Shown here in pieces: positions 2,512 through 49,546 of a stretch of 49,546 nucleotides of DNA. The notes beneath the pieces are model-generated. The model saw only the letters and a list, made by a program, of their open reading frames with translations, made no database searches and was not told the origin of the DNA. The DNA is from Alphaproteobacteria bacterium. GTDB taxonomy: Bacteria > Pseudomonadota > Alphaproteobacteria > DATDPM01. A program made the translations under genes and the position numbers. Location: contig DATDPM010000012.1 in the NCBI GenBank assembly GCA_035292745.1, positions 1 to 49,546 on the forward strand, read 5' to 3'. Every line of letters begins with the position of its first letter. Position 1 is the stretch's first letter.

Positions 2512-4629
2512 CTAGCGTTTCGCCGGCTTCTTCAGGCCGCGGGTTCCGGGCTTGCCGGCGGAGGAGCGCGGCGCATCCGGGGCGAGGCCAAGCGCGCGCG
2601 CCTCCAGGCGCTTGATCTGGTCGCGCAGACGCGCCGCGTCCTCGAATTCCAGGTCGGCGGCCGCCGCCTTCATCCGGGTTTCGAGCTCGGCGATATAGGA
2701 GTCGAGATCGCGGCCGACCAGATGCCGCGCCTCGGCGTCGCCGGTATCCACCGTGTAGTGATCGGCTTCGTACACCGTCCTGAGCACGTCGTTGATGGAT
2801 TTGCGCACCGATTCGGGCGTGATCCCGTGGGCGGCGTTATAGGCGACCTGCTTCTCGCGCCGGCGGTTGGTCTCGGAGATCGCGTATTCGAGCGATCCCG
2901 TCATGTTGTCGGCATAGAGGATCACGCGCCCGTCGATGTTGCGCGCGGCCCGGCCGATGGTCTGGACCAGCGACGTCTTGGAGCGCAAAAACCCTTCCTT
3001 GTCGGCGTCCAGGATCGCGACCAGCGCGCATTCCGGAATGTCGAGCCCCTCGCGCAGCAGGTTGATCCCGACCAGCACGTCGAAGGCGCCGAGCCTCAAG
3101 TCGCGGATGATCTCGATGCGCTCCAGCGTGTCGATGTCGGAGTGGAGATAGCGGACCTTGACGCCGGCCTCGTGCAGATATTCGGTCAAATCCTCGGCCA
3201 TGCGCTTGGTGAGCGTGGTCACCAGCGCGCGCTGGCCCTTGGCGGCGCAGGCCTTGCACTCGGCGATCAGGTCGTCCACCTGGCTTTCGATGGGCCGCAC
3301 GAAGCACGGCGGGTCGATGAGCCCGGTGGGGCGCACCACCTGCTCGACGATCACGCCGCCCGTCCGCTCCAGCTCCCACGGCCCCGGCGTGGCCGAGACA
3401 TAGGTGGTCTGCGGCCGCATGCCTTCCCATTCCTCGAATTTGAGCGGCCGGTTGTCGAGGCAGGACGGCAGCCGGAATCCGTATTCGGCGAGAGTCGCCT
3501 TGCGCCGGTAGTCGCCCTTATACATGCCGGAGAGCTGCGGCACCGTGACGTGCGATTCGTCCACGAACAGAAGCGCGTCCTCGGGCAGATATTCGAACAG
3601 CGTCGGCGGCGGCTCGCCCGGCTTGCGGCCCGTCAGATAGCGCGAATAGTTTTCGATGCCGGCGCAGCTTCCGGTCGCCTCGATCATCTCGATGTCGAAG
3701 GTGGTGCGCTGTTCGAGCCGCTGCGCCTCGAGCAGCTTGCCCGCCGCGTTGTATTCCGCGAGCCGGGCCTTGAGGTCCTGTTTGATCTGCTTGACCGCCT
3801 GATCGAGGGTCGGCTTCGGCGTCACATAGTGGCTGTTGGGGAATATCTTGACCTCGGAAAGCGCGGCCCGCTTCTCGCCGGTCAAGGGATCGAATTCGAC
3901 GATCGATTCGAGATCGTCGCCGAACAGCGAGAACCGCCAGGCGCGGTCCTCCAGGTGCGCGGGGAACAACTCGACGGAATCGCCGCGCACCCGGAACGTC
4001 CCGCGGTGGAAATCGGTGTCGTTGCGGCGGTACTGCAACTCGACCAGCCGGCGCAGAAGCTCGGCGCGGCGCACGGTCTGCCCGACCGCGAGCGGGAACG
4101 TCATGCTGGAATAAACTTCCGCGTCGCCGATGCCGTAGATGCACGAAACCGAGGCGACGATGATGACGTCGCGCCGCTCCAGCAGCGCGCGGGTCGCGGA
4201 ATGGCGCATGCGGTCGATCTGCTCGTTCACGGACGATTCTTTTTCGATGTAGGTGTCGGTCCGCGGCACATAGGCCTCGGGCTGGTAGTAGTCGTAATAG
4301 GAGACGAAATACTCGACCGCGTTGTCCGGGAAGAACGACTTCATCTCGCCGTAGAGCTGGGCGGCGAGCGTCTTGTTGGGGGCCAGCACCAGGGCCGGCC
4401 GCTTCAGCGTGGCGATGGCATGGGCCACGGTGAAGGTCTTGCCCGAGCCGGTGACGCCGAGCAGCACCTGATCGCGCTCGCCCGCGCGGATGCCCTGGAC
4501 GAGCGCGGCGATCGCCTCCGGCTGGTCGCCGGCCGGCGCAAATTCGGAAACCAGGCGGAAAGGCGCGGGCTCCGGAGCCCGCACCGAAGCGGGAACCCGG
4601 TCGGCCGCGTCCACGGCGGTCGAGGTCAT
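2512..4629 (-). CDS. uvrB: excinuclease ABC subunit B
   Basis: Contains the helicase Walker A motif [13 protein letters not shown], the beta-hairpin region and the C-terminal UvrB/UvrC interaction motif. The track ORF extends to 5046, but homology starts at MTSTAVD (ATG at 4629). The upstream 139 codons are Arg/Gly/Pro-rich read-through. Confidence 0.93.
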
Positions 4630-41611: not shown

Positions 41612-42555
41612 TGGCGGGTGACATCGGCATCCGGCAGGGCCCCATCCCCCCGTTCCTGCCCAACGCGCAGGGGCTTCAGGTTTCCTTCGAGTTCTTCCCG
41701 CCCAAGACCGAGGAAATGGAGAAGACCCTGTGGTCGGCGTTGAAGCGGCTCGAGCCTCTCGGCCCGCGCTTCGTCTCGGTCACCTATGGCGCGGGCGGCA
41801 CCACCCGGGAAAGAACGCACGCGACCGTGTTGCGGATACTGAAAGAGACCTCGCTGACGCCGGCGGCGCATCTCACCTGCATCGGCGCGCCGCGCAGCGA
41901 GATCGACGACATCGCCCGGCTCTATTGGCGGGAAGGCGTCCGGCATATCGTCGCGCTGCGCGGGGACCCGCCCGACCGCGGCGCGACCTATGTGCCCTAT
42001 CCCGGCGGCTACGCCTACGCCAGCGATCTGGTTGCCGGGTTGAAGAAGATCGGCGATTTCGAGATTTCGGTCGCCTGCTATCCCGAGGTCCATCCCGAGG
42101 CGATCTCGGCCAAGGCCGATCTCGAAAACCTGAAGCGCAAGATCGACGCCGGCGCCAGCCGCGCCATCACCCAGTTCTTTTTCGACGTGGACGTGTTCCA
42201 CCGCTTCGTGGACCGGGCCCGCGCCGCCGGCATCAGCGTTCCGATCGTGCCGGGGATCCTGCCCGTCACCAATTTCGCCCGCGTGGCCGAATTCGCCAAG
42301 GCTTGCGGGACGCGCATCGCGCCCTGGGTCGCCAAGCTGTTCGAGGGATTGGATGAGGACGCCGAAACCCGCAAGCTGGTGGCGGCCACGGTTGCGGCGG
42401 AGCAATGCCGGATGCTGCAGGCAAGCGGCATCCGCGAATTCCACTTCTACACCCTGAACCGGGCCGACCTTACCTACGCCATCTGCCATATCCTGGGCCT
42501 GCGCCCGAAGGCGGCGGCGGCGGCGCAACCGGCGGCGCGCGCGGAAATCCGGTAA
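41608..42555 (+). CDS. metF: methylenetetrahydrofolate reductase
   Basis: VSFEFFPPKTEEMEKTLW..FVSVTYGAGGTTRERT..ITQFFFD. The start ATG at 41608 follows GGAGGA. The track start at 41446 lies inside sahR. Confidence 0.92.
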   Translation: MMAGDIGIRQGPIPPFLPNAQGLQVSFEFFPPKTEEMEKTLWSALKRLEPLGPRFVSVTYGAGGTTRERTHATVLRILKETSLTPAAHLTCIGAPRSEIDDIARLYWREGVRHIVALRGDPPDRGATYVPYPGGYAYASDLVAGLKKIGDFEISVACYPEVHPEAISAKADLENLKRKIDAGASRAITQFFFDVDVFHRFVDRARAAGISVPIVPGILPVTNFARVAEFAKACGTRIAPWVAKLFEGLDEDAETRKLVAATVAAEQCRMLQASGIREFHFYTLNRADLTYAICHILGLRPKAAAAAQPAARAEIR

Positions 42556-45500
42556 TGGCACACTTGCTCGATTACTTGCGCGAGCGCGTGCTGCTCGCGG
42601 ACGGCGCCATGGGAACCCGGGTGCAGGCCCTCGACCTCACCGTCGAAAAGGATTTTCTTGGGGCCGAGAACTGCACCGACATCCTGACCAAGAGCCGGCC
42701 GGATATCGTGCGCGACATCCACATGAGCTATTTCGCCGCCGGATCCGACGCGGTGGAGACCAACACCTTCGGTACCTCGCCGGTGACGCTGGGCGAATTC
42801 GGGCTGTCGGACGAGGCCTTCGATCTCAGCAAGCGCGCGGCCGAGATCGCCCGCGAGGCGGCGGAGGAATTCAAGGGCGACGGGCGGACCCGCTTCGTGC
42901 TGGGCTCGATCGGGCCGGGCACGAAACTCCCCACCCTCGGGCACATCGATTACCAGACCGTCGAGGACGCAATCGCGGTCCAGGCCGCCGGGCTCGCCGC
43001 GGGCAAGGTCGACGCCTTCCTGATCGAGACCTGCCAGGACCCGCTCCAGATCAAGGCGGCGGTCAACGGCGCCAAGCGCGCGCGCGAGGAAGCCAAGGCC
43101 GATATCCCGATCATCGTCCAGGTGACGGTGGAAACCACCGGCACGCTTCTGGTCGGCACCGACATCGCGGCCGCGGCGACCATCGTCCGCGCGCTCGACG
43201 TGCCGATCATGGGCCTCAATTGCGCGACCGGGCCGCAGGAGATGTCGGAGCACGTGAAGTGGCTGGCCGAGAACTGGCCGGGGATGATCTCGGTCCTGCC
43301 CAACGCCGGATTGCCGGAGCTGGTGGACGGCGCGCCGCATTATCCGCTCGGCCCCGACGAACTGGCCCATTGGCTCGAGCGGTTCATGGAGGAGGACGGG
43401 ATCAACATCATCGGCGGTTGTTGCGGCACCGATACCGCGCATATCGCGGCGCTCGACGCCATGTTGCGGCGGCGCGCGGGAAACAAGCTGCGGCCCGCCC
43501 CGGTCAAGCGCGAGGTGTTCTGGGTGCCGGCGGTGGCCTCGCTCTATTCCCAGGTGCCGCTGCGCCAGGAGGCGGCGTATTTCTCGATCGGCGAGCGCTG
43601 CAACGCCAACGGCAGCCGCAAGTTCCGCGAGTTGCAGGATGCCGGCGACTGGGACGGCTGCGTCGAGATGGGCCGGGACCAGACGAAGGAAGGCTCGCAC
43701 GCGCTCGACGTCTGTACCGCTTTCGTCGGGCGCGACGAGGCGGCCGACGTCACCGAGGTGGTGTCGCGGATGCGCGGCTCGGTCAACGCGCCGCTGGTGT
43801 TCGATTCGACCGAGTATCCCGTGCTCGAGACGGCGCTCAAGCTTTACGGCGGCAAGGCGATCATCAATTCGATCAACTTCGAGGACGGCGAGGCGCCGGC
43901 GGCCAGGAAGCTGGCGCTGGCGCGCAAGTTCGGCGCGGCGGTGATCGCGCTGACCATCGACGAGGGCGGCATGGCCAAGGAGGCCGACCACAAGCTGGAG
44001 ATCGCCCGCCGCCTTTACGATTTCGCCTGTAACCGTTATGGCCTTCCGCCGTCGGATCTGCTGTTCGACCCGCTCACCTTCACCATCTGCACCGGCAACG
44101 AGGACGACCGCAAGCTCGGGCTCAACAGCCTCGACGCCATCGAGAAAATCGCCAAGGAAATGCCGGAGTGCCAGATCATCCTGGGGCTTTCGAACATCTC
44201 CTTCGGCCTCAACCCGCCGGCGCGTCACGTCCTCAATTCGGTGTTCCTCGACCAGGCGCTCAAACGCGGGCTGACGGGGGCGATCGTGCATGTGAGCAAG
44301 ATCGTGCCGCTCCATAAGATTCCGCCCGAGGAAGCGCGGATTGCCGAGGATCTGATCTTCGACCGGCGCCGTGACGGCTACGATCCGCTGCACGCCTACC
44401 TTCGCCTGTTCGAGGGCCGCACCGTCGAAGCCAAGAAGGCGCCGGTACGCCACGCCGCTGCCCCGGACCGGCTCAAGCAGCGCATCGTCGACGGCGACCG
44501 TCAGGGCCTGGAAGCCGATTTGGATGAGGCGATGAAGGCCCATCCGCCGCTCGACATCATCAACAAGTTCCTGCTCGACGGAATGAAGGTGGTGGGCGAG
44601 TTGTTCGGCTCGGGGCAGATGCAGCTGCCGTTCGTGCTGCAATCGGCCGAGACGATGAAGAAGGCGGTTTCCTATCTCGAGCCGCACATGGAACGGCTGG
44701 AAGGGCAGCAGAAGGGGACGATGGTGCTCGCCACCGTCAGGGGCGACGTGCACGACATCGGCAAGAACCTGGTGGACATCATCCTCACCAACAACGGCTA
44801 TCGCGTCGTCAATCTCGGCATCAAGCAGCCGATCGAGCACATTCTCGCCGCGGCGAAGGAGCACAAGGCGGATGCGGTGGGCATGTCGGGCCTGCTCGTC
44901 AAATCCACCGTGATCATGCGCGAGAATTTGATGGAGATGACGCGCGACGAGATGAAAATCCCGGTGATCCTGGGCGGAGCCGCGCTCACCCGCGGCTATG
45001 TCGAGGCCGACTGCGCGAAAGCCTACGGCTGCGGCCGGGTCGCTTATGCGCGGGATGCCTTCGACGGGCTCGAGCTCATGGAAAAGGTCATGACCGGCCG
45101 CTTCGACGATCATTTGGCCGCGCGGGCGAAAGCACAGGCCGAACGTCCCGAGCGCAAACGCGATAGACGGCTGGAGGCGCTGGAACGCCCCGTGGAGAAG
45201 GCGCGGCCCGTCGATCTCGAGGAGATTCGCCTGCGCCGCGCCGAGCTCACCAAGGGTATCGCCGTTCCGACGCCGCCGTTTTGGGGCCCGCGCGCGATCG
45301 ACAAGGTGCCGATCCGCTCGCTTCTGCCGTTCCTGAACGAGACCATGCTGTTCCAGTTCCACTGGGGCTTCAAGAAGGCCGGCAAGAGCCGCGAGGAATT
45401 CGCCGAATGGGCGAAGCGGGAGGTGCGGCCGATCATGATCAAGCTCGCCAAGCAATGCGCCGACGAGAACATCATCGTGCCAAGGGCGGTCTACGGCTAT

Positions 45501-46055
45501 TGGAAGGCGGCGGGCGACGGAAACGACCTTGTTCTGTTCGGTCAGGACGGGACCACCGAGGTTGCGCGATTCACGCTCCCGCGCCAGAAGCGCGAGGACG
45601 GAATCTGCATCGCCGATTTCGTGCGCGACATCTCCGAACGCGAACGCGACGTGGTGGGGCTGCAGGTGGTGACGGCCGGCGAGCGGGCCTCGGAGGTGGC
45701 GCGGGAGTGGTTCCGGGAGAATCGCTACCAGGATTACCTGTATCTTCACGGCTTCAGCGTCGAGATCGCCGAGGCCATGGCGGAATACGTGCACAAGCGG
45801 ATCCGCAACGAGCTGGGCTTCGGCAACGAGGACGAGCGGGACATCAACAAGCTGCTGAAGCAGGGCTACCGCGGCTCGCGCTACTCCTTCGGCTACCCGG
45901 CTTGCCCGAATCTGGGCGACCAGCGGCGCCTCCTGGAGCTTTTGGACGCCAAGCGGATCGGGGTCGTGCTGGGCGAAGAGGATCAGCTCGAGCCCGAGCA
46001 ATCGACCTCGGCGATCGTCATTCACCACCCGCAGGCGAAATATTTCACGGTTTAG
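42555..46055 (+). CDS. metH: cobalamin-dependent methionine synthase
   Basis: About 1166 aa from MAHLLDYLRERVLLADGAMGT (TAATG overlap with metF). It has Hcy-binding, pterin-binding and B12-binding (GDVHDIGKN, DxHxxG) modules and a reactivation domain ending HHPQAKYFTV. Confidence 0.96.
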   Translation: MAHLLDYLRERVLLADGAMGTRVQALDLTVEKDFLGAENCTDILTKSRPDIVRDIHMSYFAAGSDAVETNTFGTSPVTLGEFGLSDEAFDLSKRAAEIAREAAEEFKGDGRTRFVLGSIGPGTKLPTLGHIDYQTVEDAIAVQAAGLAAGKVDAFLIETCQDPLQIKAAVNGAKRAREEAKADIPIIVQVTVETTGTLLVGTDIAAAATIVRALDVPIMGLNCATGPQEMSEHVKWLAENWPGMISVLPNAGLPELVDGAPHYPLGPDELAHWLERFMEEDGINIIGGCCGTDTAHIAALDAMLRRRAGNKLRPAPVKREVFWVPAVASLYSQVPLRQEAAYFSIGERCNANGSRKFRELQDAGDWDGCVEMGRDQTKEGSHALDVCTAFVGRDEAADVTEVVSRMRGSVNAPLVFDSTEYPVLETALKLYGGKAIINSINFEDGEAPAARKLALARKFGAAVIALTIDEGGMAKEADHKLEIARRLYDFACNRYGLPPSDLLFDPLTFTICTGNEDDRKLGLNSLDAIEKIAKEMPECQIILGLSNISFGLNPPARHVLNSVFLDQALKRGLTGAIVHVSKIVPLHKIPPEEARIAEDLIFDRRRDGYDPLHAYLRLFEGRTVEAKKAPVRHAAAPDRLKQRIVDGDRQGLEADLDEAMKAHPPLDIINKFLLDGMKVVGELFGSGQMQLPFVLQSAETMKKAVSYLEPHMERLEGQQKGTMVLATVRGDVHDIGKNLVDIILTNNGYRVVNLGIKQPIEHILAAAKEHKADAVGMSGLLVKSTVIMRENLMEMTRDEMKIPVILGGAALTRGYVEADCAKAYGCGRVAYARDAFDGLELMEKVMTGRFDDHLAARAKAQAERPERKRDRRLEALERPVEKARPVDLEEIRLRRAELTKGIAVPTPPFWGPRAIDKVPIRSLLPFLNETMLFQFHWGFKKAGKSREEFAEWAKREVRPIMIKLAKQCADENIIVPRAVYGYWKAAGDGNDLVLFGQDGTTEVARFTLPRQKREDGICIADFVRDISERERDVVGLQVVTAGERASEVAREWFRENRYQDYLYLHGFSVEIAEAMAEYVHKRIRNELGFGNEDERDINKLLKQGYRGSRYSFGYPACPNLGDQRRLLELLDAKRIGVVLGEEDQLEPEQSTSAIVIHHPQAKYFTV

Positions 46056-46227: not shown

Positions 46228-46773
46228 ATGAGGAACACACGGACAATCGAAGCCAGCCCCAGGGCCTGGCTTACCAGCCTTATTGCGCTTTTGGCGCTTC
46301 CGGCCGCGCTGCTCGCGGTCCCGGCCGCCGCCAACGCGACGGGAAAGAACAGTGTGGTGATGAGCGTCGAGCTTGCGGCCTCGCCCAAGGACGTATGGCA
46401 AATGGTCGGACCCTTCGACAAGCTGCAGGGTTGGCATCCCGCGGTCGCCAGCACGACCATGGACGGCTCGCCCACCCAGCCGGGTGCGGTGCGCGTGCTG
46501 CATCTCAACGGCGGCGGCGACATCAAGGAGAAGCTCACCTCGTATAGCGATTCGGACACGCGGATGACCTACGAGATCTTGGAGAGCCCGCTTCCGGTCG
46601 CGAACTATGAATCCTTCATCGCCATTACCGATGCGGGCGCGGGGCATTCCCTGGTCATTTGGGGCTCCAACTTCGATGCCGCGGGCGGCGCCACGGACGC
46701 GAAGGCGAAATCGGTGATCCAAGGCATCTACCAGGCGGGCTTCGACACGCTCAGGAAGAAGTTCGGCAAGTAG
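46228..46773 (+). CDS. secreted SRPBCC-superfamily protein (polyketide cyclase/MxaD-like)
   Basis: 181-aa ORF with a signal peptide (ALPAALLAVPAAANA/TG). The core SVELAASPKDVWQMVGPFDKLQGWHPAV is typical of SRPBCC ligand-binding proteins. Confidence 0.65.
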   Translation: MRNTRTIEASPRAWLTSLIALLALPAALLAVPAAANATGKNSVVMSVELAASPKDVWQMVGPFDKLQGWHPAVASTTMDGSPTQPGAVRVLHLNGGGDIKEKLTSYSDSDTRMTYEILESPLPVANYESFIAITDAGAGHSLVIWGSNFDAAGGATDAKAKSVIQGIYQAGFDTLRKKFGK

Positions 46774-46788
46774 CTTTTCGGGACGGCG

Positions 46789-46825
46789 AAAAAAGCGACC
46801 CACCCGGGCCGTGCGCCCGGGTGGG
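46789..46825 (-). terminator. intrinsic terminator downstream of the FTR1-fusion gene
   Basis: 11-bp stem CCCACCCGGGC/GCCCGGGTGGG (46799-46809 and 46815-46825), 5-nt loop. On the minus strand it is followed by TCGCTTTTTTCG. Confidence 0.7.
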
Positions 46826-46851: not shown

Positions 46852-48405
46852 TCAGAAGTGGAATTCGAGCTCGGCCAGCCACTTGATCGAGTGGTCGGGG
46901 CTAGCCTGCGTCAATCCGAAGAGCCAGCCCAATTCGTAATAGAAGTTCACGGAGCGGGCGACCGGGATGAGGCCGACGATGACGGGCCCGAGACGGTGCT
47001 TCTGTTCGTCGACCGGCTTGGTTTCGCTGATTTCGCCGATGTCGCCGTAGGCCTCGATGGCCGGCTCGAGATAGGGCCGCCAGCGGTATTTGGTGCGGAG
47101 CGCATAACCGAATTCCGTGTCTTCCTCGGCGTGCGAGCCGACCTGCTGTTCGAAAATGAAATTGACCGTGTTGACGGTCTGCCCCAGCTGCTTTTCGAGA
47201 AGGAGCTTGCCCTCGACCTCGTCGGGCGCGTCCTTGGCGTCGGCGCGTTTGTATTCGAAGTAGAGGCCGGAATCGACCCAGGCATCGCCCTGCTCGAAGA
47301 GTTGGAGGATGTTCTCCCAGGCCGTGGCGTTGTAACGTAGCGGCCCGCCGGCATCCTTCCGGAGCTCGCCGAAAATCGCCGTTTGCCAGCGGTCGGTGAC
47401 GCCGTATTCGACCTCGTAAATTTGAGTTTGCGTTTTCTTCGTCGTATCTCCGCGATCCACCGCGGCGTCGCCGCGCGCCTCGATGGCGAACTCGCCCTCG
47501 TGGACGATGGGGGAATAGACCTTGTTTTCGGCGTGAACCGTCGCCGGCACGGCCAGCGAGGCGAGGATAACGGCCGCCACCGCGCCCGCGCTGGGCAGCA
47601 CCCGGCGGTTGTCGGCAAGCCGCATCATGACGACGATGGCGCCGAGCGTGGCCACATAGAACAGGACCTGGACGAGGGCCGGGTGCGAATCGTAACCGAT
47701 GAGCGTGTGCAAGACCTGGCCCAGCATGTTGCGCTCGGACAACAGCGCCGAAGTGTCCCAAGCGGTAGCGACGATCGGCGGCAGCGTTCCGGCGGCAACG
47801 AGCATCGCCGCGCCTTGGGACGCCATGCCCGCGGCCAGGAACGCGAGAAGCCAGCTCGTGACCCCGAACAAGTGGCGCGCCGCAACCCGCACCAAGCCCC
47901 GGTATATCAGGTATCCGACGGCGATTCCGGCGGCGATGCCGGTGGCGCCGCCGAGAAGCATCAAGGAGGCGGACGCGCCTTGTCCGGCGGCGATTCCGTA
48001 AAGGAAAAGAACCGCCTCGGCGCCCTCGCGCAGCACCGAAAGCCCGATGACCACGGCGAGCATGTAGGCCGGCACGCCGCCCGCGGCGACGCCATTCCCG
48101 ACATCCTTGGCGCGCCGCGACAGCGCGCGGCCGTGGCGGCGCATCCAGACGATCGACCAGCCGAGCACGGCGACCGCCACGAACAGCACGGTCGCGTTCA
48201 AAAATTCCTGGCCCATGCCCGAAGCCGCGGCAGCGATCGCGTCGGCGAAGCCGGCGACCAGGATCGAGCCGGCGAGCCCGCCGAAGATTCCCGCAAGGAC
48301 CCAGAAATTGCGGCGCGGCAGTCCCACGGTCGCGGCCATGATAATGCCCACGATGAGCGCCGCTTCCAAGACTTCCCGGAACACCACGATTGCGCTGGCC
48401 AGCAT
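46852..48405 (-). CDS. FTR1/EfeU-family iron permease fused in frame to a signal-peptide-like segment and a beta-barrel-like C-terminal domain
   Basis: Residues 1-260 have seven hydrophobic helices and two REXXE motifs (REVLEA, REGAEA). Residues 260-292 (MMRLADNRRVLPSAGAVAAVILASLAVPATVHA) look like a Sec signal peptide. Residues 293-517 show alternating-polarity strands and end in ...WLAELEFHF. Confidence 0.75.
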   Translation of the reverse strand: MLASAIVVFREVLEAALIVGIIMAATVGLPRRNFWVLAGIFGGLAGSILVAGFADAIAAAASGMGQEFLNATVLFVAVAVLGWSIVWMRRHGRALSRRAKDVGNGVAAGGVPAYMLAVVIGLSVLREGAEAVLFLYGIAAGQGASASLMLLGGATGIAAGIAVGYLIYRGLVRVAARHLFGVTSWLLAFLAAGMASQGAAMLVAAGTLPPIVATAWDTSALLSERNMLGQVLHTLIGYDSHPALVQVLFYVATLGAIVVMMRLADNRRVLPSAGAVAAVILASLAVPATVHAENKVYSPIVHEGEFAIEARGDAAVDRGDTTKKTQTQIYEVEYGVTDRWQTAIFGELRKDAGGPLRYNATAWENILQLFEQGDAWVDSGLYFEYKRADAKDAPDEVEGKLLLEKQLGQTVNTVNFIFEQQVGSHAEEDTEFGYALRTKYRWRPYLEPAIEAYGDIGEISETKPVDEQKHRLGPVIVGLIPVARSVNFYYELGWLFGLTQASPDHSIKWLAELEFHF

Positions 48406-48463: not shown

Positions 48464-48814
48464 CTATTTCGCGACGATCTTGCCTTGGGCGGTTTCGATA
48501 TTGAACTCGCCCACGAACTCGTAGGTGCCGGGATCCAGCGGTCCGATGATGACGATGCCGGTGGCGCCGCCGGGGATGACTTTCTCGCGGTTCAGGGCGT
48601 AGCTCTCGAATTCCTCCGGGGTGGGGTCCTCGTTCCGAACCAAAAGCTTGATCTTCTTGCCGGCCGGCACCTCGACGACTTCCGGCGTGAAGCGGTGATC
48701 CTTGATGGTGAGCGTGATGCTGTCGTCGTCGGCGCGGGCCTGAGGCGCCAGAACGGCGGCGGCAAGAACGAAGGCGGCGGCCAAACCGCGAACGGTGATC
48801 GAACGGGTCGTCAT
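48464..48814 (-). CDS. periplasmic cupredoxin-like protein (FtrB/EfeO-N-like partner of FTR1 permeases)
   Basis: 116-aa ORF with a signal peptide (..APQARA/DD). ITLTIKDHRFTPEVVEVPAGKKIKLLVRNEDPTPEEFES is a cupredoxin-fold pattern. It lies directly upstream of the permease. Confidence 0.7.
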   Translation of the reverse strand: MTTRSITVRGLAAAFVLAAAVLAPQARADDDSITLTIKDHRFTPEVVEVPAGKKIKLLVRNEDPTPEEFESYALNREKVIPGGATGIVIIGPLDPGTYEFVGEFNIETAQGKIVAK

Positions 48815-48873: not shown

Positions 48874-48902
48874 TATATAGAGCGATTGCGAGTTACTCGC
48901 AA
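48874..48902 (-). promoter_or_regulatory. candidate sigma-70 promoter (TTGCGA-N17-TATATA on the minus strand) overlapped by the palindrome TTGCGAG-TTA-CTCGCAA
   Basis: -10 at 48874-48879 and -35 at 48897-48902, with 17-nt spacing. The 17-bp dyad at 48886-48902 includes the -35 element and most of the spacer. A third half-site, TTCGCAA, lies at 48908-48914. Confidence 0.4.
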
Positions 48903-49067: not shown

Positions 49068-49546
49068 TTGAACCTTCGCGATCTCGAATATCTCGTGGCC
49101 TTGGCCGACCTGGGGCATTTCGGCCGGGCGGCGGTCGCCTGCGGCATCAGCCAGCCGACCCTGAGCGCCCAGATCATAAAGCTCGAAGCGGAGCTGGGTT
49201 CGACCTTGTTCCAGCGAAGCCGGCGGGCTCTGCGCCCGACCCCGGAGGGCGAGCGGCTGGTGGCCCAGGCCCGGCGCGTCCTGGAGGAGGCGGCGCGGCT
49301 GACCGCCATCGCCGGGCCTAAGGCCGATGCCCCGCTCGCCCGACTGCGGGTCGGTCTTGAGTCGACTCTTGCGGCCGGTTGCCTCGACTGGCTGGCGCCG
49401 GCGGTCGCCGCCACGTTTCCCTCGGCGGAGGCGGTCTTCAAGGAGGCATCCGAAAGCTTGCTTGTGGCCGCGATCGCCGCGCGCGACATCGACGCGGCCC
49501 TGGTGCCGATGCCCGGCGCCGATGCCCGGCACGGCTGCGAGCCGCT
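49068..49546 (+). CDS. oxyR: OxyR-like LysR-family regulator, N-terminal part (runs off window end)
   Basis: Hand translation from TTG 49068: LNLRDLEYLVALADLGHFGRAAVACGISQPTLSAQIIKLEAELGSTLFQRSRRALRPTPEGERLVAQARRVLEEA. This closely parallels E. coli OxyR (MNIRDLEYLVALAEHRHFRRAA..VSQPTLSGQIRKLEDELG). A TAA lies in frame at 49020. It is not in the ORF track because no stop falls inside the window. Confidence 0.8.
   Translation, partial: MNLRDLEYLVALADLGHFGRAAVACGISQPTLSAQIIKLEAELGSTLFQRSRRALRPTPEGERLVAQARRVLEEAARLTAIAGPKADAPLARLRVGLESTLAAGCLDWLAPAVAATFPSAEAVFKEASESLLVAAIAARDIDAALVPMPGADARHGCEP

Follow-up and report, generated by a model that had tools for sequence, protein, structure and literature searches.

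An FTR1 iron permease fused to an internal signal peptide and a predicted 12-strand barrel is probably cut into two proteins for two membranes

In the window analysed here (the whole stretch of 49,546 nucleotides from an Alphaproteobacteria bacterium), a single Open Reading Frame (ORF) encodes an FTR1 permease, an internal signal peptide and an outer-membrane-type barrel. It is located at 46852..48405 on the reverse strand (stop codon included), and its parts were assigned by translation, Pfam, AlphaFold2 (AF2) and Foldseek. The fusion product is probably cut into two proteins that serve two membranes, although the cleavage and the location of the products are inferred. In its full form, our proposal is that signal peptidase I cuts the polyprotein and that the barrel goes to the outer membrane, where it forms the dedicated channel of a cupredoxin/FTR1 unit for Fe(II) uptake. 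We lean towards this proposal with modest confidence, and cleavage, localisation and substrate are inferred in it. The analysis itself establishes how the protein is built and that this architecture is conserved across species, along with the predicted barrel fold, the logic of the topology and the conservation of the cleavage motif.

A single reading frame with three parts

The ORF starts with ATG and its product has 517 aa. The first-pass annotation had described one ORF with three parts (permease, signal peptide and barrel), which is upheld by the translation, Pfam, AF2 and Foldseek, and every peptide it quoted is present in the translation. The exact protein sequence already exists in public collections without a name, and the fusion of the cultured species Kordiimonas marina (WP_247119359.1) bears only the database name 'FTR1 family protein'. 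No description of an FTR1-barrel fusion was found in the literature on FTR1 or iron permeases with cupredoxin, outer membrane, beta-barrel or porin. Searching PDB sequences with the whole fusion protein gave no match, and single-sequence AF2 of the full 517-aa protein returned an all-helical model with a pLDDT of 40.

Residues 1-261 (47623..48405, reverse strand) form the FTR1-family permease part, to which seven transmembrane helices are assigned by PF03239, hydropathy and positive-inside analysis. Pfam FTR1 (PF03239) matches residues 1-260 at 115.5 bits (cut-off 25.3), so family membership is met, while the NCBIfam EfeU model (NF041756, equivalog) scores 142.5 bits and its cut-off of 255 is not met. 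Judged by these profiles, the window permease is a member of the FTR1 family but not an EfeU orthologue. Two RExxE motifs are read on the reverse strand, R10-E-V-L-E14 in helix 1 (48364..48378) and R126-E-G-A-E130 in helix 4 (48016..48030). The profile match, the motifs and the hydropathy agree with the earlier claim of a complete FTR1/EfeU-type permease that has both RExxE motifs and ends after helix seven.

Hydropathy detects eight hydrophobic 19-residue segments in the fusion protein, seven of them ahead of the junction. The number of K+R per loop is 2, 6, 3 and 3 in odd loops (sum 14), and 0, 0, 1 and 1 in even loops (sum 2). Because these counts favour the odd loops, the N-terminus would be periplasmic and helix 7 would end in the cytoplasm, while segment 8 would cross the membrane outwards; the only basis for this topology is hydropathy together with the positive-inside rule. 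The fusion of a permease to a barrel had been called topologically paradoxical. The fusion itself stands and the paradox does not, because FTR1 would end in the cytoplasm, which is the side required for the n-region of a signal peptide.

The C-terminal domain is a predicted 12-strand barrel

The predicted mature barrel protein consists of residues 293-517 (225 aa; 46855..47529, reverse strand), based on AF2, Foldseek and the hydropathy of alternating faces. A conserved N-terminal KVYSPIVxxGE segment comes first, followed by 12 antiparallel strands. An AlphaFold structure of this domain had been proposed as a check, and AF2 with a 43-sequence alignment gave exactly 12 strands with a mean pLDDT of 89.4 and a pTM of 0.82. 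All top matches of the model in the PDB by Foldseek are outer-membrane beta-barrels; the best is FapF (5o68; E 4e-7, TM 0.6-0.65), and further matches include the COG4313 channel (4rl8), Tsx, OmpG, NalP and PcoB. At TM-scores of about 0.6, the model and these structures share a class of fold without being close relatives. Together with the terminal Phe read from the sequence, these results agree with the earlier description of a 12-strand beta-barrel-like domain of about 225 residues.

The strands have two alternating faces, whose mean Kyte-Doolittle hydropathy over all 12 is +1.02 and -1.33, and the conserved Glu/Asp/Lys residues map to the polar one. The C-terminal strand K-W-L-A-E-L-E-F-H-F (46855..46884, reverse strand) is like a beta-signal, with a terminal Phe and hydrophobic residues at -1, -3, -5, -7 and -9. 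Most homologues end in F or Y, both among the fused (33 of 43) and among the standalone ones (123 of 145). Generally, BAM substrates have an even strand number, a hydrophobic face with a polar lumen and a C-terminal beta-signal, all of which are met by this domain. On the model, the domain is predicted to be an outer-membrane-type 12-strand barrel, and its residence in the outer membrane is inferred. The same holds for barrel closure, pore size and where the KVYSPIV segment lies, which are inferred from the strand count and the Foldseek matches, with the coordinates uninspected.

At the sequence level, no Pfam or NCBIfam model matches the window barrel domain, none of 43 family members matches Pfam at E<0.03, and the barrel profile found 0 matches among PDB sequences at E<=10. 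The domain has no significant profile match to any named barrel family, such as FapF, COG4313, Tsx, PcoB or DUF481.

The barrel family and distribution of the fusion

The barrel family, for which there is no Pfam or NCBIfam model, contains at least 2952 representative clusters at 50% identity. Among the HMM-aligned members, 43 of 192 are fused, and about three quarters of the members are standalone. Genome contigs were scanned with an alignment of 13 sequences, which yielded 53 species-representative loci, and the scan with a single protein yielded no match. FTR1 and barrel lie in one frame at 23 of the 53 loci, and at 18 of the 23 the ORF is complete, with 515-529 aa.

The 18 complete fusions come from different species of Alpha-, Beta- and Gammaproteobacteria, including Kordiimonas marina, and their identity with the window protein is 38-68% in the barrel domain and 44-75% in the permease domain. 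All of them are uninterrupted and located downstream of an FtrB-like cupredoxin gene. The question raised in the first-pass annotation, whether orthologous loci encode one ORF or two, is thus answered by an uninterrupted fusion in 18 species-level genomes. As 18 independent, complete ORFs repeat the same three parts, the architecture is beyond chance.

Standalone barrel genes have other neighbours, either NapG/NapH-like ferredoxins (iron-sulfur proteins) or TonB-dependent receptors plus DUF6580, so the barrel is not tied to FTR1. In a neighbour-joining tree, the cupredoxin-linked barrels all form one clade. The fusion likely originated in a cupredoxin-FTR1-barrel operon by loss of the FTR1 stop codon, which would be tolerated because the FTR1 C-terminus and the signal peptide n-region are both cytoplasmic. 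Several barrel homologues come from Fe(II)-oxidising Mariprofundaceae.

Operon, cupredoxin and possible substrates

The fusion is preceded by a gene for a secreted FtrB/EfeO-type cupredoxin of 116 aa (48464..48814, reverse strand; Pfam Cupredoxin_1, 109 bits), the first gene of a two-gene operon. An intrinsic terminator (46799..46825, reverse strand), with an 11-bp stem containing 10 G-C pairs and then a T-run, lies 27 nt past the stop codon and closes the operon. The best solved relative of the cupredoxin is 8vuk_A ('EfeO-type cupredoxin-like domain-containing protein'; E 1.1e-11), in which the acidic motif EFES...EKVI is aligned. The window cupredoxin has no Cys and therefore no type-1 copper site; it has Asn where H121 of Brucella FtrB aligns, and this His is absent. 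Brucella FtrB binds Cu2+ and an Fe2+ mimic, and it speeds Fe2+ oxidation (PMC11966278).

At 28 of the 53 scanned loci, the gene immediately before the barrel or fusion gene codes for a cupredoxin homologue. It precedes the fusion in the window and at 21 fused loci, and a standalone barrel in 5 species. At locus L025, the cupredoxin gene is placed between the barrel gene and a separate FTR1 gene of 275 aa. This linkage of cupredoxin, FTR1 and barrel genes supports a shared function.

The promoter region contains a perfect palindrome, TTGCGAG-TAA-CTCGCAA (48886..48902, no strand assigned), which starts 88 nt upstream of the cupredoxin ATG and is a candidate Fur-type operator. Similar palindromic sites exist upstream of the cupredoxin gene at five loci (L004, L005, L008, L022 and L053), and the window palindrome resembles Sphingobium Fur boxes tested by gel shift, for example AATGCGAATCATTGCATT. 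Its designation as a candidate Fur box is based on resemblance only, and iron regulation of the operon is inferred. The operon is flanked by genes for an SRPBCC protein, MetH and an OxyR-like regulator. A role as conserved partner was considered for this divergent regulator and rejected; since its gene is absent from the syntenic loci L003-L005, it is not put forward as the operon regulator. Rfam identified no structured RNA near the locus.

It is conceivable, though unlikely in our estimation, that the protein is processed as proposed while the barrel is not the iron entry channel, and serves copper supply to the cupredoxin, product export or docking of a periplasmic redox partner. Such a role would fit the homologues that occur with cupredoxin alone (the 5 species above), with NapG/NapH-like proteins or with TonB-dependent receptors and DUF6580, as well as those in Fe(II)-oxidising Mariprofundaceae and the presence of PcoB, a 12-strand copper protein, among the structural matches. 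However, FTR1 is the commonest partner in the cupredoxin-linked clade and is covalently fused, and a Fur-box-like operator is located upstream. Moreover, the barrel domain contains neither Cys nor a haem motif, hence it would not be redox-active itself.

The junction resembles a cleavable signal peptide

Residues 262-292 (47530..47622, reverse strand) form an internal signal-peptide-like segment, identified by alignment with standalone signal peptides, by its AxA-type site and by conservation. The n-region is RLADNRR (net charge +2), the h-region is VLPSAGAVAAVILASLAV within V269..P287, and the c-region is P-A-T-V-H-A, with Pro at -6, Val at -3 and Ala at -1 (ATVHA292/E293-NKVYSPIV). A Sec signal peptide has a positive n-region, an h-region, small residues at -1/-3 and a helix breaker near -6, and all of them are met at the junction. 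The cut of signal peptidase I is predicted from these residues at A292/E293 (nt 47530/47529).

In the alignment, this segment takes the position of the N-terminal signal peptide of the 145 standalone homologues, an ordinary one that ends 1-6 residues ahead of the conserved KVYSP motif. In an HMM-anchored count (Ala/Gly/Ser at -1, and Ala/Val/Ser/Gly at -3), an A-x-A-type site directly precedes the KVYSPIV N-terminus in all 43 fusions, while a fraction of 0.37 is expected from shuffled sequences; the strict motif is present in 122 of the 145 standalone homologues. The n-region is net positive in 98% of the fused proteins, and Pro or Gly is found at -4 to -7 in 33 of 43. Column conservation is only 0.28 in the h-region compared with 0.52-0.75 in helices 1-7, and it reaches about 0.8 at -3 and about 0.9 at -1, with the following N-terminus also conserved. 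The gap between helix 7 and the h-region in the window protein is only 7 residues.

The first-pass annotation had recognised the n-, h- and c-regions with an AxA-type site (VHA/EN), and the same layout is found here, with the site kept across the fusions. It had also offered three options for the fate of the protein, the first of which, a polyprotein cut by signal peptidase, is favoured by the alignment position, by the small -1/-3 residues in 43 of 43 fusions and by the low conservation of the h-region. That the junction acts as a signal peptide is inferred from sequence features, and so is the actual cleavage.

If no cut takes place, segment eight would be a permanent anchor, and the beta domain would stay in the periplasm on the permease, for example to bind metal or to dock the cupredoxin, and would be merely barrel-like. 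We judge this improbable. A single ORF is indeed most simply read as a covalent fusion, the uncharged run of segment eight, about 20 residues, is sufficient to span the membrane, many conserved acidic residues in the barrel interior could bind metal, and AlphaFold alone cannot separate a membrane barrel from a soluble one. However, a plain anchor has no need for the small residues kept at the cleavage site, and a helix packed against the transporter is not expected to be much less conserved than helices 1-7. A tethered soluble domain, the third option, also fits poorly with the hydrophobic strand face, the conserved signature of a C-terminal Phe and structural neighbours that are all outer-membrane barrels; in addition, three out of four family members are secreted as free proteins. 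Since only about 12 residues separate segment eight from strand 1, an uncleaved barrel would be unable to reach the outer membrane.

The second option is an internal start at Met260/Met261 (or at the junction Met of relatives), which would make the barrel precursor directly, the fused frame being mostly overlapping or coupled genes. In 33 of 43 fusions, a Met is located 15-50 residues ahead of the conserved motif. At L009, L011 and L054, the junction I-G-G-L-M is written ATC GGA GGA CTN ATG, which uses the rare GGA (5-15% of Gly codons) twice and places GGAGGA 6 nt before the ATG. Moreover, the standalone protein of L001 begins with MYLFGKP, similar to ...GLMYLFRTP at the junction of the fused L008. 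However, 10 of 43 fusions contain no Met in this region, and an ATG is lacking there in L015, L028 and L053. As the first-pass annotation had stated, no Shine-Dalgarno (SD) sequence precedes the tandem Met codons of the window (47623-47628): the best anti-SD duplex is just -1.7 kcal/mol, compared with -8 to -11 kcal/mol for the real start codons of several standalone homologues, and the closest relatives, L004 and L005, lack an SD likewise. Because the required Met is missing in 10 of 43 fusions and the SD is missing in the window, an internal start cannot be the general route, and as such we find it highly improbable. Ribosomes translating the permease would in any case read through into the fusion, so a processing route would still be required. 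The SD-like GGAGGA in three relatives indicates that a second route to the free barrel may exist in some lineages.

An artefact of sequencing or assembly, in which a stop codon was lost or a frameshift arose between two ordinary genes, can be virtually ruled out and was rejected, as the fused ORF is complete in 18 assemblies that were made independently and span several species and classes (among them that of an isolate), and as there is no room at the junction for a stop codon plus a ribosome-binding site; most family members are standalone and the reading frame is broken in the syntenic relative L003, but unrelated genes are frameshifted in that assembly too (UvrD in four pieces).

Comparison with known systems

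FtrABCD of Brucella, Bordetella and Burkholderia is similar to the window locus in that a secreted FtrB/EfeO-type cupredoxin without a His-His-Cys copper site is encoded beside an FTR1 permease with two RExxE motifs. The presumed logic of FtrABCD is oxidase-coupled Fe(II) import (PMC11966278), which is presumed to be common to both. However, the window locus contains neither FtrA (P19) nor FtrD (Fer4_5 polyferredoxin), by which the four-component criterion is not met, and FtrC lacks the C-terminal internal signal peptide and outer-membrane-type barrel assigned to the window permease. EfeUOB (E. coli and Bacillus) and yeast Fet3p/Ftr1p share the permease family PF03239 and a cupredoxin-fold partner with it, while the M75 peptidase-like EfeO domain and the DyP peroxidase EfeB of EfeUOB are absent from the window locus. 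To our knowledge, no outer-membrane component is known for EfeUOB or Fet3p/Ftr1p.

For processing, the similar case is fbcH of Bradyrhizobium japonicum, which, as Thony-Meyer et al. are said to have described in PNAS in 1991, gives cytochromes b and c1 by cleavage of an internal signal peptide. There, too, one ORF leads from a polytopic inner-membrane protein through an internal signal peptide to another exported protein, and its product is cut at a signal-peptidase site. However, the second product of FbcH is anchored in the inner membrane, whereas that of the window would be a beta-barrel that crosses the periplasm and is inserted by BAM. We know of no described case in which an inner-membrane permease and an outer-membrane barrel come from one polypeptide.

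The window barrel is similar in predicted strand number and size to FapF (5o68), COG4313 (4rl8), Tsx (1tlw), the NalP translocator (1uyn) and PcoB (7pge), with a Foldseek probability of 1.00, TM-scores of 0.43-0.65 and sequence identity of 9-12%. FapF and COG4313 also have an N-terminal non-strand segment ahead of the barrel, while the KVYSPIV motif and the conserved Glu/Asp/Lys/His set are specific to the window barrel family and distinguish it from known 12-strand barrels. Cyc2-type fused cytochrome-porins of Fe(II) oxidisers likewise couple a small outer-membrane barrel to an iron-handling redox function. In Cyc2, however, a haem domain (periplasmic/outer-membrane) sits on the barrel behind one N-terminal signal peptide, whereas the partner in the window is an inner-membrane permease.

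Proposed mechanism

In the mechanism we propose, a two-gene operon, probably iron-regulated, would express the secreted FtrB-like cupredoxin first and the polyprotein second. Residues 1-261 would insert in the inner membrane as a seven-helix FTR1 permease with a cytoplasmic C-terminus, and the next 31 residues would act as an internal signal peptide, with the n-region in the cytoplasm, the h-region spanning the membrane and the V-H-A/E c-region at the periplasmic face. Signal peptidase I would cut after A292, and the h-region would be left on the permease as an additional helix. The freed chain of 225 residues, which starts just before KVYSPIV and ends with Phe, would be passed by periplasmic chaperones to BAM and become a 12-strand barrel in the outer membrane. 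The polar, acidic lumen of the barrel would most likely let Fe(II), or else a different metal cation, through to the periplasm, where the cupredoxin would handle or oxidise Fe(II) and FTR1 would import it, as proposed for Fet3p/Ftr1p and FtrB/FtrC.

Significance

The passage of Fe(II) across the outer membrane to FTR1-type permeases (EfeU, FtrC) is normally credited to general porins. A dedicated barrel that is encoded together with the permease, and fused to it in a quarter of cases, would fill the outer-membrane gap in a minimal uptake unit of three parts. Having both a BAM substrate and a polytopic inner-membrane protein on one chain would also be an unusual natural test case, which bears on how signal peptidase I recognises internal signal peptides and on the hand-over from the Sec translocon to periplasmic chaperones. 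As the fusions are labelled only 'FTR1 family protein', a family definition would correct many annotations, and the cultured carrier Kordiimonas marina A6E486 makes the hypothesis directly testable.

It seems to us an evenly balanced question whether a widespread class of proteobacterial iron transporters is made as one chain, from which signal peptidase produces both the permease of the inner membrane and the channel of the outer one. If this is true, the fusion would be the first single gene product to serve both Gram-negative membranes, with a built-in 1:1 stoichiometry, and a large family of 12-strand porins specific for metals would be newly defined by its channel.

Architecture of the fusion protein

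The fusion gene is an uninterrupted ORF with an ATG start (46852-48405, minus strand), encoding 517 residues. Residues 1-260 form an FTR1 iron-permease domain (Pfam, 115.5 bits vs. a cut-off of 25.3) with both of the RExxE motifs noted in the first-pass annotation, REVLE (from residue 10) and REGAE (from residue 126); the other descriptive statements of that annotation were also borne out. The score against the EfeU equivalog of NCBIfam is 142.5, under the cut-off of 255, indicating an FTR1-family permease and not an EfeU orthologue. Eight hydrophobic segments are found by hydropathy. Odd loops carry 2, 6, 3 and 3 lysines plus arginines and even loops 0, 0, 1 and 1, which places the N-terminus in the periplasm and the end of helix 7 in the cytoplasm, with segment 8 running from inside to outside.

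The C-terminal domain (residues 293-517) matches no Pfam or NCBIfam model, 42 of its homologues likewise have no Pfam match, and a profile search with the domain against all PDB sequences found nothing. Predicting the full-length structure from one sequence, without an alignment, gave an unusable model (pLDDT 40). Using a 43-sequence alignment, AlphaFold2 predicted the domain with a mean pLDDT of 89.4 and a pTM of 0.82. The model has twelve strands (protein residues 305-316, 326-335, 340-350, 356-368, 378-388, 395-407, 410-422, 431-440, 446-458, 469-483, 486-497 and 505-516), the number first proposed from sequence patterning. The top PDB fold matches in Foldseek are outer-membrane beta-barrels only, which shows the fold class; the best is FapF (E 4e-7, TM 0.55-0.65), followed by a polysaccharide secretin, OmpG, Tsx, NalP, invasin, the COG4313 channel and PcoB. 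The strand faces alternate between hydrophobic (mean Kyte-Doolittle +1.02) and polar (-1.33), and the family's near-invariant Glu, Asp, Lys, Thr and Asn residues lie on the polar one; the near-invariant positions are E309, D378, Y382, E384, E398, K400, E404, T413, N415, E451 and E514. The chain ends in W-L-A-E-L-E-F-H-F, a classical C-terminal BAM-substrate signature with the terminal Phe already pointed out, and inspection of the domain sequence found no Cys. Localisation in the outer membrane is inferred.

The junction as a probable internal signal peptide

A search with the barrel domain found about 50 close homologues, and an exhaustive profile search detected 2952 representatives at E<=1e-3 (558 at E<=1e-30). 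The architecture count covers the 192 members in which the conserved Tyr of KVYSP provided an anchor. Standalone barrels of about 250 aa account for 145 of them, and 43 carry FTR1 (at least 100 residues) ahead of the barrel, including 20 at full length (at least 500 aa).

The sequence around the junction is M260-M261-RLADNRR-VLPSAGAVAAVILASLAV-PATVHA292/E293-NKVYSPIV, with Pro at -6, Val at -3 and Ala at -1, confirming the signal-peptide-like segment and AxA-type site (VHA/EN) of the first-pass annotation. Standalone homologues have an ordinary N-terminal signal peptide which ends 1-6 residues ahead of the conserved KVYSPIVxxGE, and the eighth hydrophobic segment of the fusions occupies exactly the same position. 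The cleavage-site motif lies 1-4 residues ahead of the VYSP Val in the fusions, with Ala (41), Gly or Ser at -1 and Ala, Val, Ser or Gly at -3 (43 of 43). All 43 fusions meet the strict -1/-3 motif, while a fraction of 0.37 is expected when the 18-residue leader is shuffled; it is also met by 122 of 145 standalone proteins. Net positive charge in the ten residues ahead of the uncharged run is present in 98% of fusions, and Pro or Gly at -4 to -7 in 33 of 43. When 38 distinct full-length fusions are aligned, the commonest residue is shared by a fraction of 0.52-0.75 in helices 1-7 and only 0.28 in the h-region; this fraction is about 0.8 at -3 and reaches about 0.9 at -1, with 0.67 in the N-terminal segment after the predicted cut. 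Judged from sequence, this pattern of motif, charge and conservation indicates that selection on the junction has kept the features of a cleavable signal peptide rather than those of a packed helix; cleavage itself is inferred. Only about 12 residues lie between the junction segment and strand 1, a spacing too short for the barrel to reach the outer membrane without cleavage.

Alternatively, the barrel precursor might be translated from an internal start at a junction Met, which does not explain the window protein. Its tandem Met codons M260-M261 (47623-47628, minus strand) have no Shine-Dalgarno sequence ahead of them (anti-SD duplex -1.7 kcal/mol), as was noted at first reading, and the junction Met of the nearest relatives also lacks one. 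Moreover, the required region is without Met in 10 of 43 fusions and without ATG in three genome loci. However, in the homologous fused loci L009 (~3850-3871), L011 (~4090-4110) and L054, the junction I-G-G-L-M is coded ATC GGA GGA CTN ATG, in which the rare Gly codon GGA is used twice and gives an SD-like GGAGGA 6 nt ahead of an in-frame ATG. The standalone barrel of locus L001 starts at the equivalent Met (MYLFGKP, vs. ...GLMYLFRTP in the fused locus L008). Internal initiation may add to processing in this one alphaproteobacterial subclade, where it was probably the route of later FTR1 loss; for the window, we prefer cleavage of the fusion at its internal signal peptide.

Recurrence of the fusion

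Scanning one genome per species returned 53 loci. FTR1 and the barrel share a single frame in 23 of them, 18 being complete ORFs of 515-529 aa; the other fused loci are cut by a contig end or have an internally interrupted barrel. The two parts are thus encoded as one ORF in orthologous loci, a point the first-pass annotation had left to be checked, and an artefactual fusion is rejected. Five loci contain cupredoxin and then a standalone barrel, with no FTR1 within 5 kb (L001 5608-6786, L002 5559-6792, L020, L033 and L034), and 24 have a barrel without an FTR1 or cupredoxin partner. In one locus (L025 4472-6455, from a Rhodospirillales MAG), barrel, cupredoxin and FTR1 are separate genes in this order; its FTR1 of 275 aa ends after helix 7, and the locus is a natural split form of the system.

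The fusion occurs in Alpha-, Beta- and Gammaproteobacteria, for example in the cultured Kordiimonas marina A6E486 (WP_247119359.1, named only “FTR1 family protein”). A fused cupredoxin-FTR1-barrel locus also lies on a 3-kb contig of a Candidatus Omnitrophota MAG (L056, JAYRHV010000174.1), a bin assigned outside Proteobacteria, which may reflect either horizontal transfer or incorrect binning. In L003 (ENA ERZ25039477 contig_106041), a close syntenic relative of the window, genes are fragmented by frameshifts (UvrD in four pieces, cupredoxin and FTR1 broken), which look like assembly errors; its apparent split and standalone 264-aa barrel (P0004) are attributed to these frameshifts in several genes.

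Operon organization

The cupredoxin gene lies upstream of the fusion gene with a 58-nt gap and encodes a secreted protein of 116 aa (Cupredoxin_1). Its best solved relative is 8vuk, a 90-aa EfeO-type cupredoxin (E 1e-11), and the alignment includes the acidic stretch EFES...EKVI. Brucella FtrB is an EfeO-type cupredoxin without a His-His-Cys site, which binds Cu2+ and a Fe2+ mimic, speeds Fe2+ oxidation and adjoins the FTR1 permease FtrC (PMC11966278); the window cupredoxin differs in having Asn at the H121 position of FtrB.

A strong intrinsic terminator (46825-46799) lies 3' of the fusion ORF. In the promoter region, a perfect 7-3-7 palindrome, TTGCGAGTAACTCGCAA (48886-48902), begins 88 nt ahead of the start codon of the cupredoxin gene and has no other close match in the 49.5-kb window, and close variants exist upstream of the cupredoxin gene in five loci (L004, L005, L008, L022 and L053). 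The palindrome and its variants are similar in sequence to Fur boxes of Sphingobium SYK-6 shown by gel shift, e.g. AATGCGAATCATTGCATT. Based on this likeness, iron regulation of the operon is a plausible but unproven inference.

A divergent OxyR-like LysR regulator gene (49068-49546, plus strand) runs off the window end; its best NCBIfam match, OxyR (E 1.8e-32), is under the cut-off because the gene is incomplete. No OxyR-like gene is found beside the operon in L003-L005, the syntenic loci nearest to the window. These loci have the flanking SRPBCC gene (46228-46773) and MetH gene (B12-dependent methionine synthase; 42405-46055, plus strand) in common with the window. The MetH ORF has an extension of about 50 Pro/Gly-rich residues ahead of MAHLLDYL, whose Met is probably the true start.

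Evolution and other contexts of the barrel family

A neighbour-joining tree built from barrel domains groups all cupredoxin-linked forms in one clade and the barrel-only forms in another. L001 and L002 are nested among fused alphaproteobacterial forms, and this nesting, together with the N-terminus MYLFGKP matching the fused junction, suggests secondary FTR1 loss by a precise deletion of the permease. The fusion is most simply explained if a cupredoxin-FTR1-barrel operon lost the stop codon of FTR1; such a loss would be tolerated, since the C-terminus of FTR1 and the n-region of a signal peptide both lie in the cytoplasm.

In 11 of the loci L039-L051, from gammaproteobacterial MAGs (e.g. L045 3256-5699), a standalone barrel directly follows genes for a Tat-signal NapG-like 4Fe-4S ferredoxin and a NapH-like Fer4_5 membrane polyferredoxin, the latter of the same protein class as FtrD. 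A metallo-beta-lactamase-fold gene lies 3' of the barrel in these loci. In three others (L013 4920-8550, L014 1687-4846 and L019 418-4128), the standalone barrel is followed by a same-strand TonB-dependent receptor of about 650-690 aa, which is another metal-uptake-type setting; a DUF6580 membrane protein comes next in L013 and L019. Several barrel homologues come from Mariprofundaceae. The NapG/NapH, TonB-receptor and Mariprofundaceae contexts fit metal or redox traffic across the outer membrane, and some of these barrels may have a substrate other than iron.

Proposed mechanism

The components are of known kinds, namely an FTR1 permease, an FtrB-like cupredoxin and a 12-strand outer-membrane barrel, the last from an unnamed family whose database names give nothing past “FTR1 family protein” or “hypothetical protein”. 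Our literature search found no account of an FTR1-barrel fusion or of this barrel family, consistent with the novelty first suspected, and as far as we can tell a conserved inner-membrane permease/outer-membrane barrel polyprotein is undescribed. The only precedent known to us for an internal signal peptide separating two bacterial membrane proteins is FbcH of Bradyrhizobium japonicum (cytochromes b and c1).

In the proposed mechanism, the seven helices would be inserted co-translationally, the internal signal peptide would be inserted as a hairpin with helix 7, and signal peptidase I would cut after A292. The 225-residue barrel would be transferred by chaperones and then folded in the outer membrane in a BAM-dependent way. 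Fe(II) or another cation, the inferred substrate, would enter via the acidic barrel lumen and be handled or oxidised by the cupredoxin, and FTR1 would do the import. On balance, we lean towards this mechanism as a whole, in which a permease-barrel polyprotein would be cleaved and its barrel sent to the outer membrane for uptake of Fe(II) or another cation.
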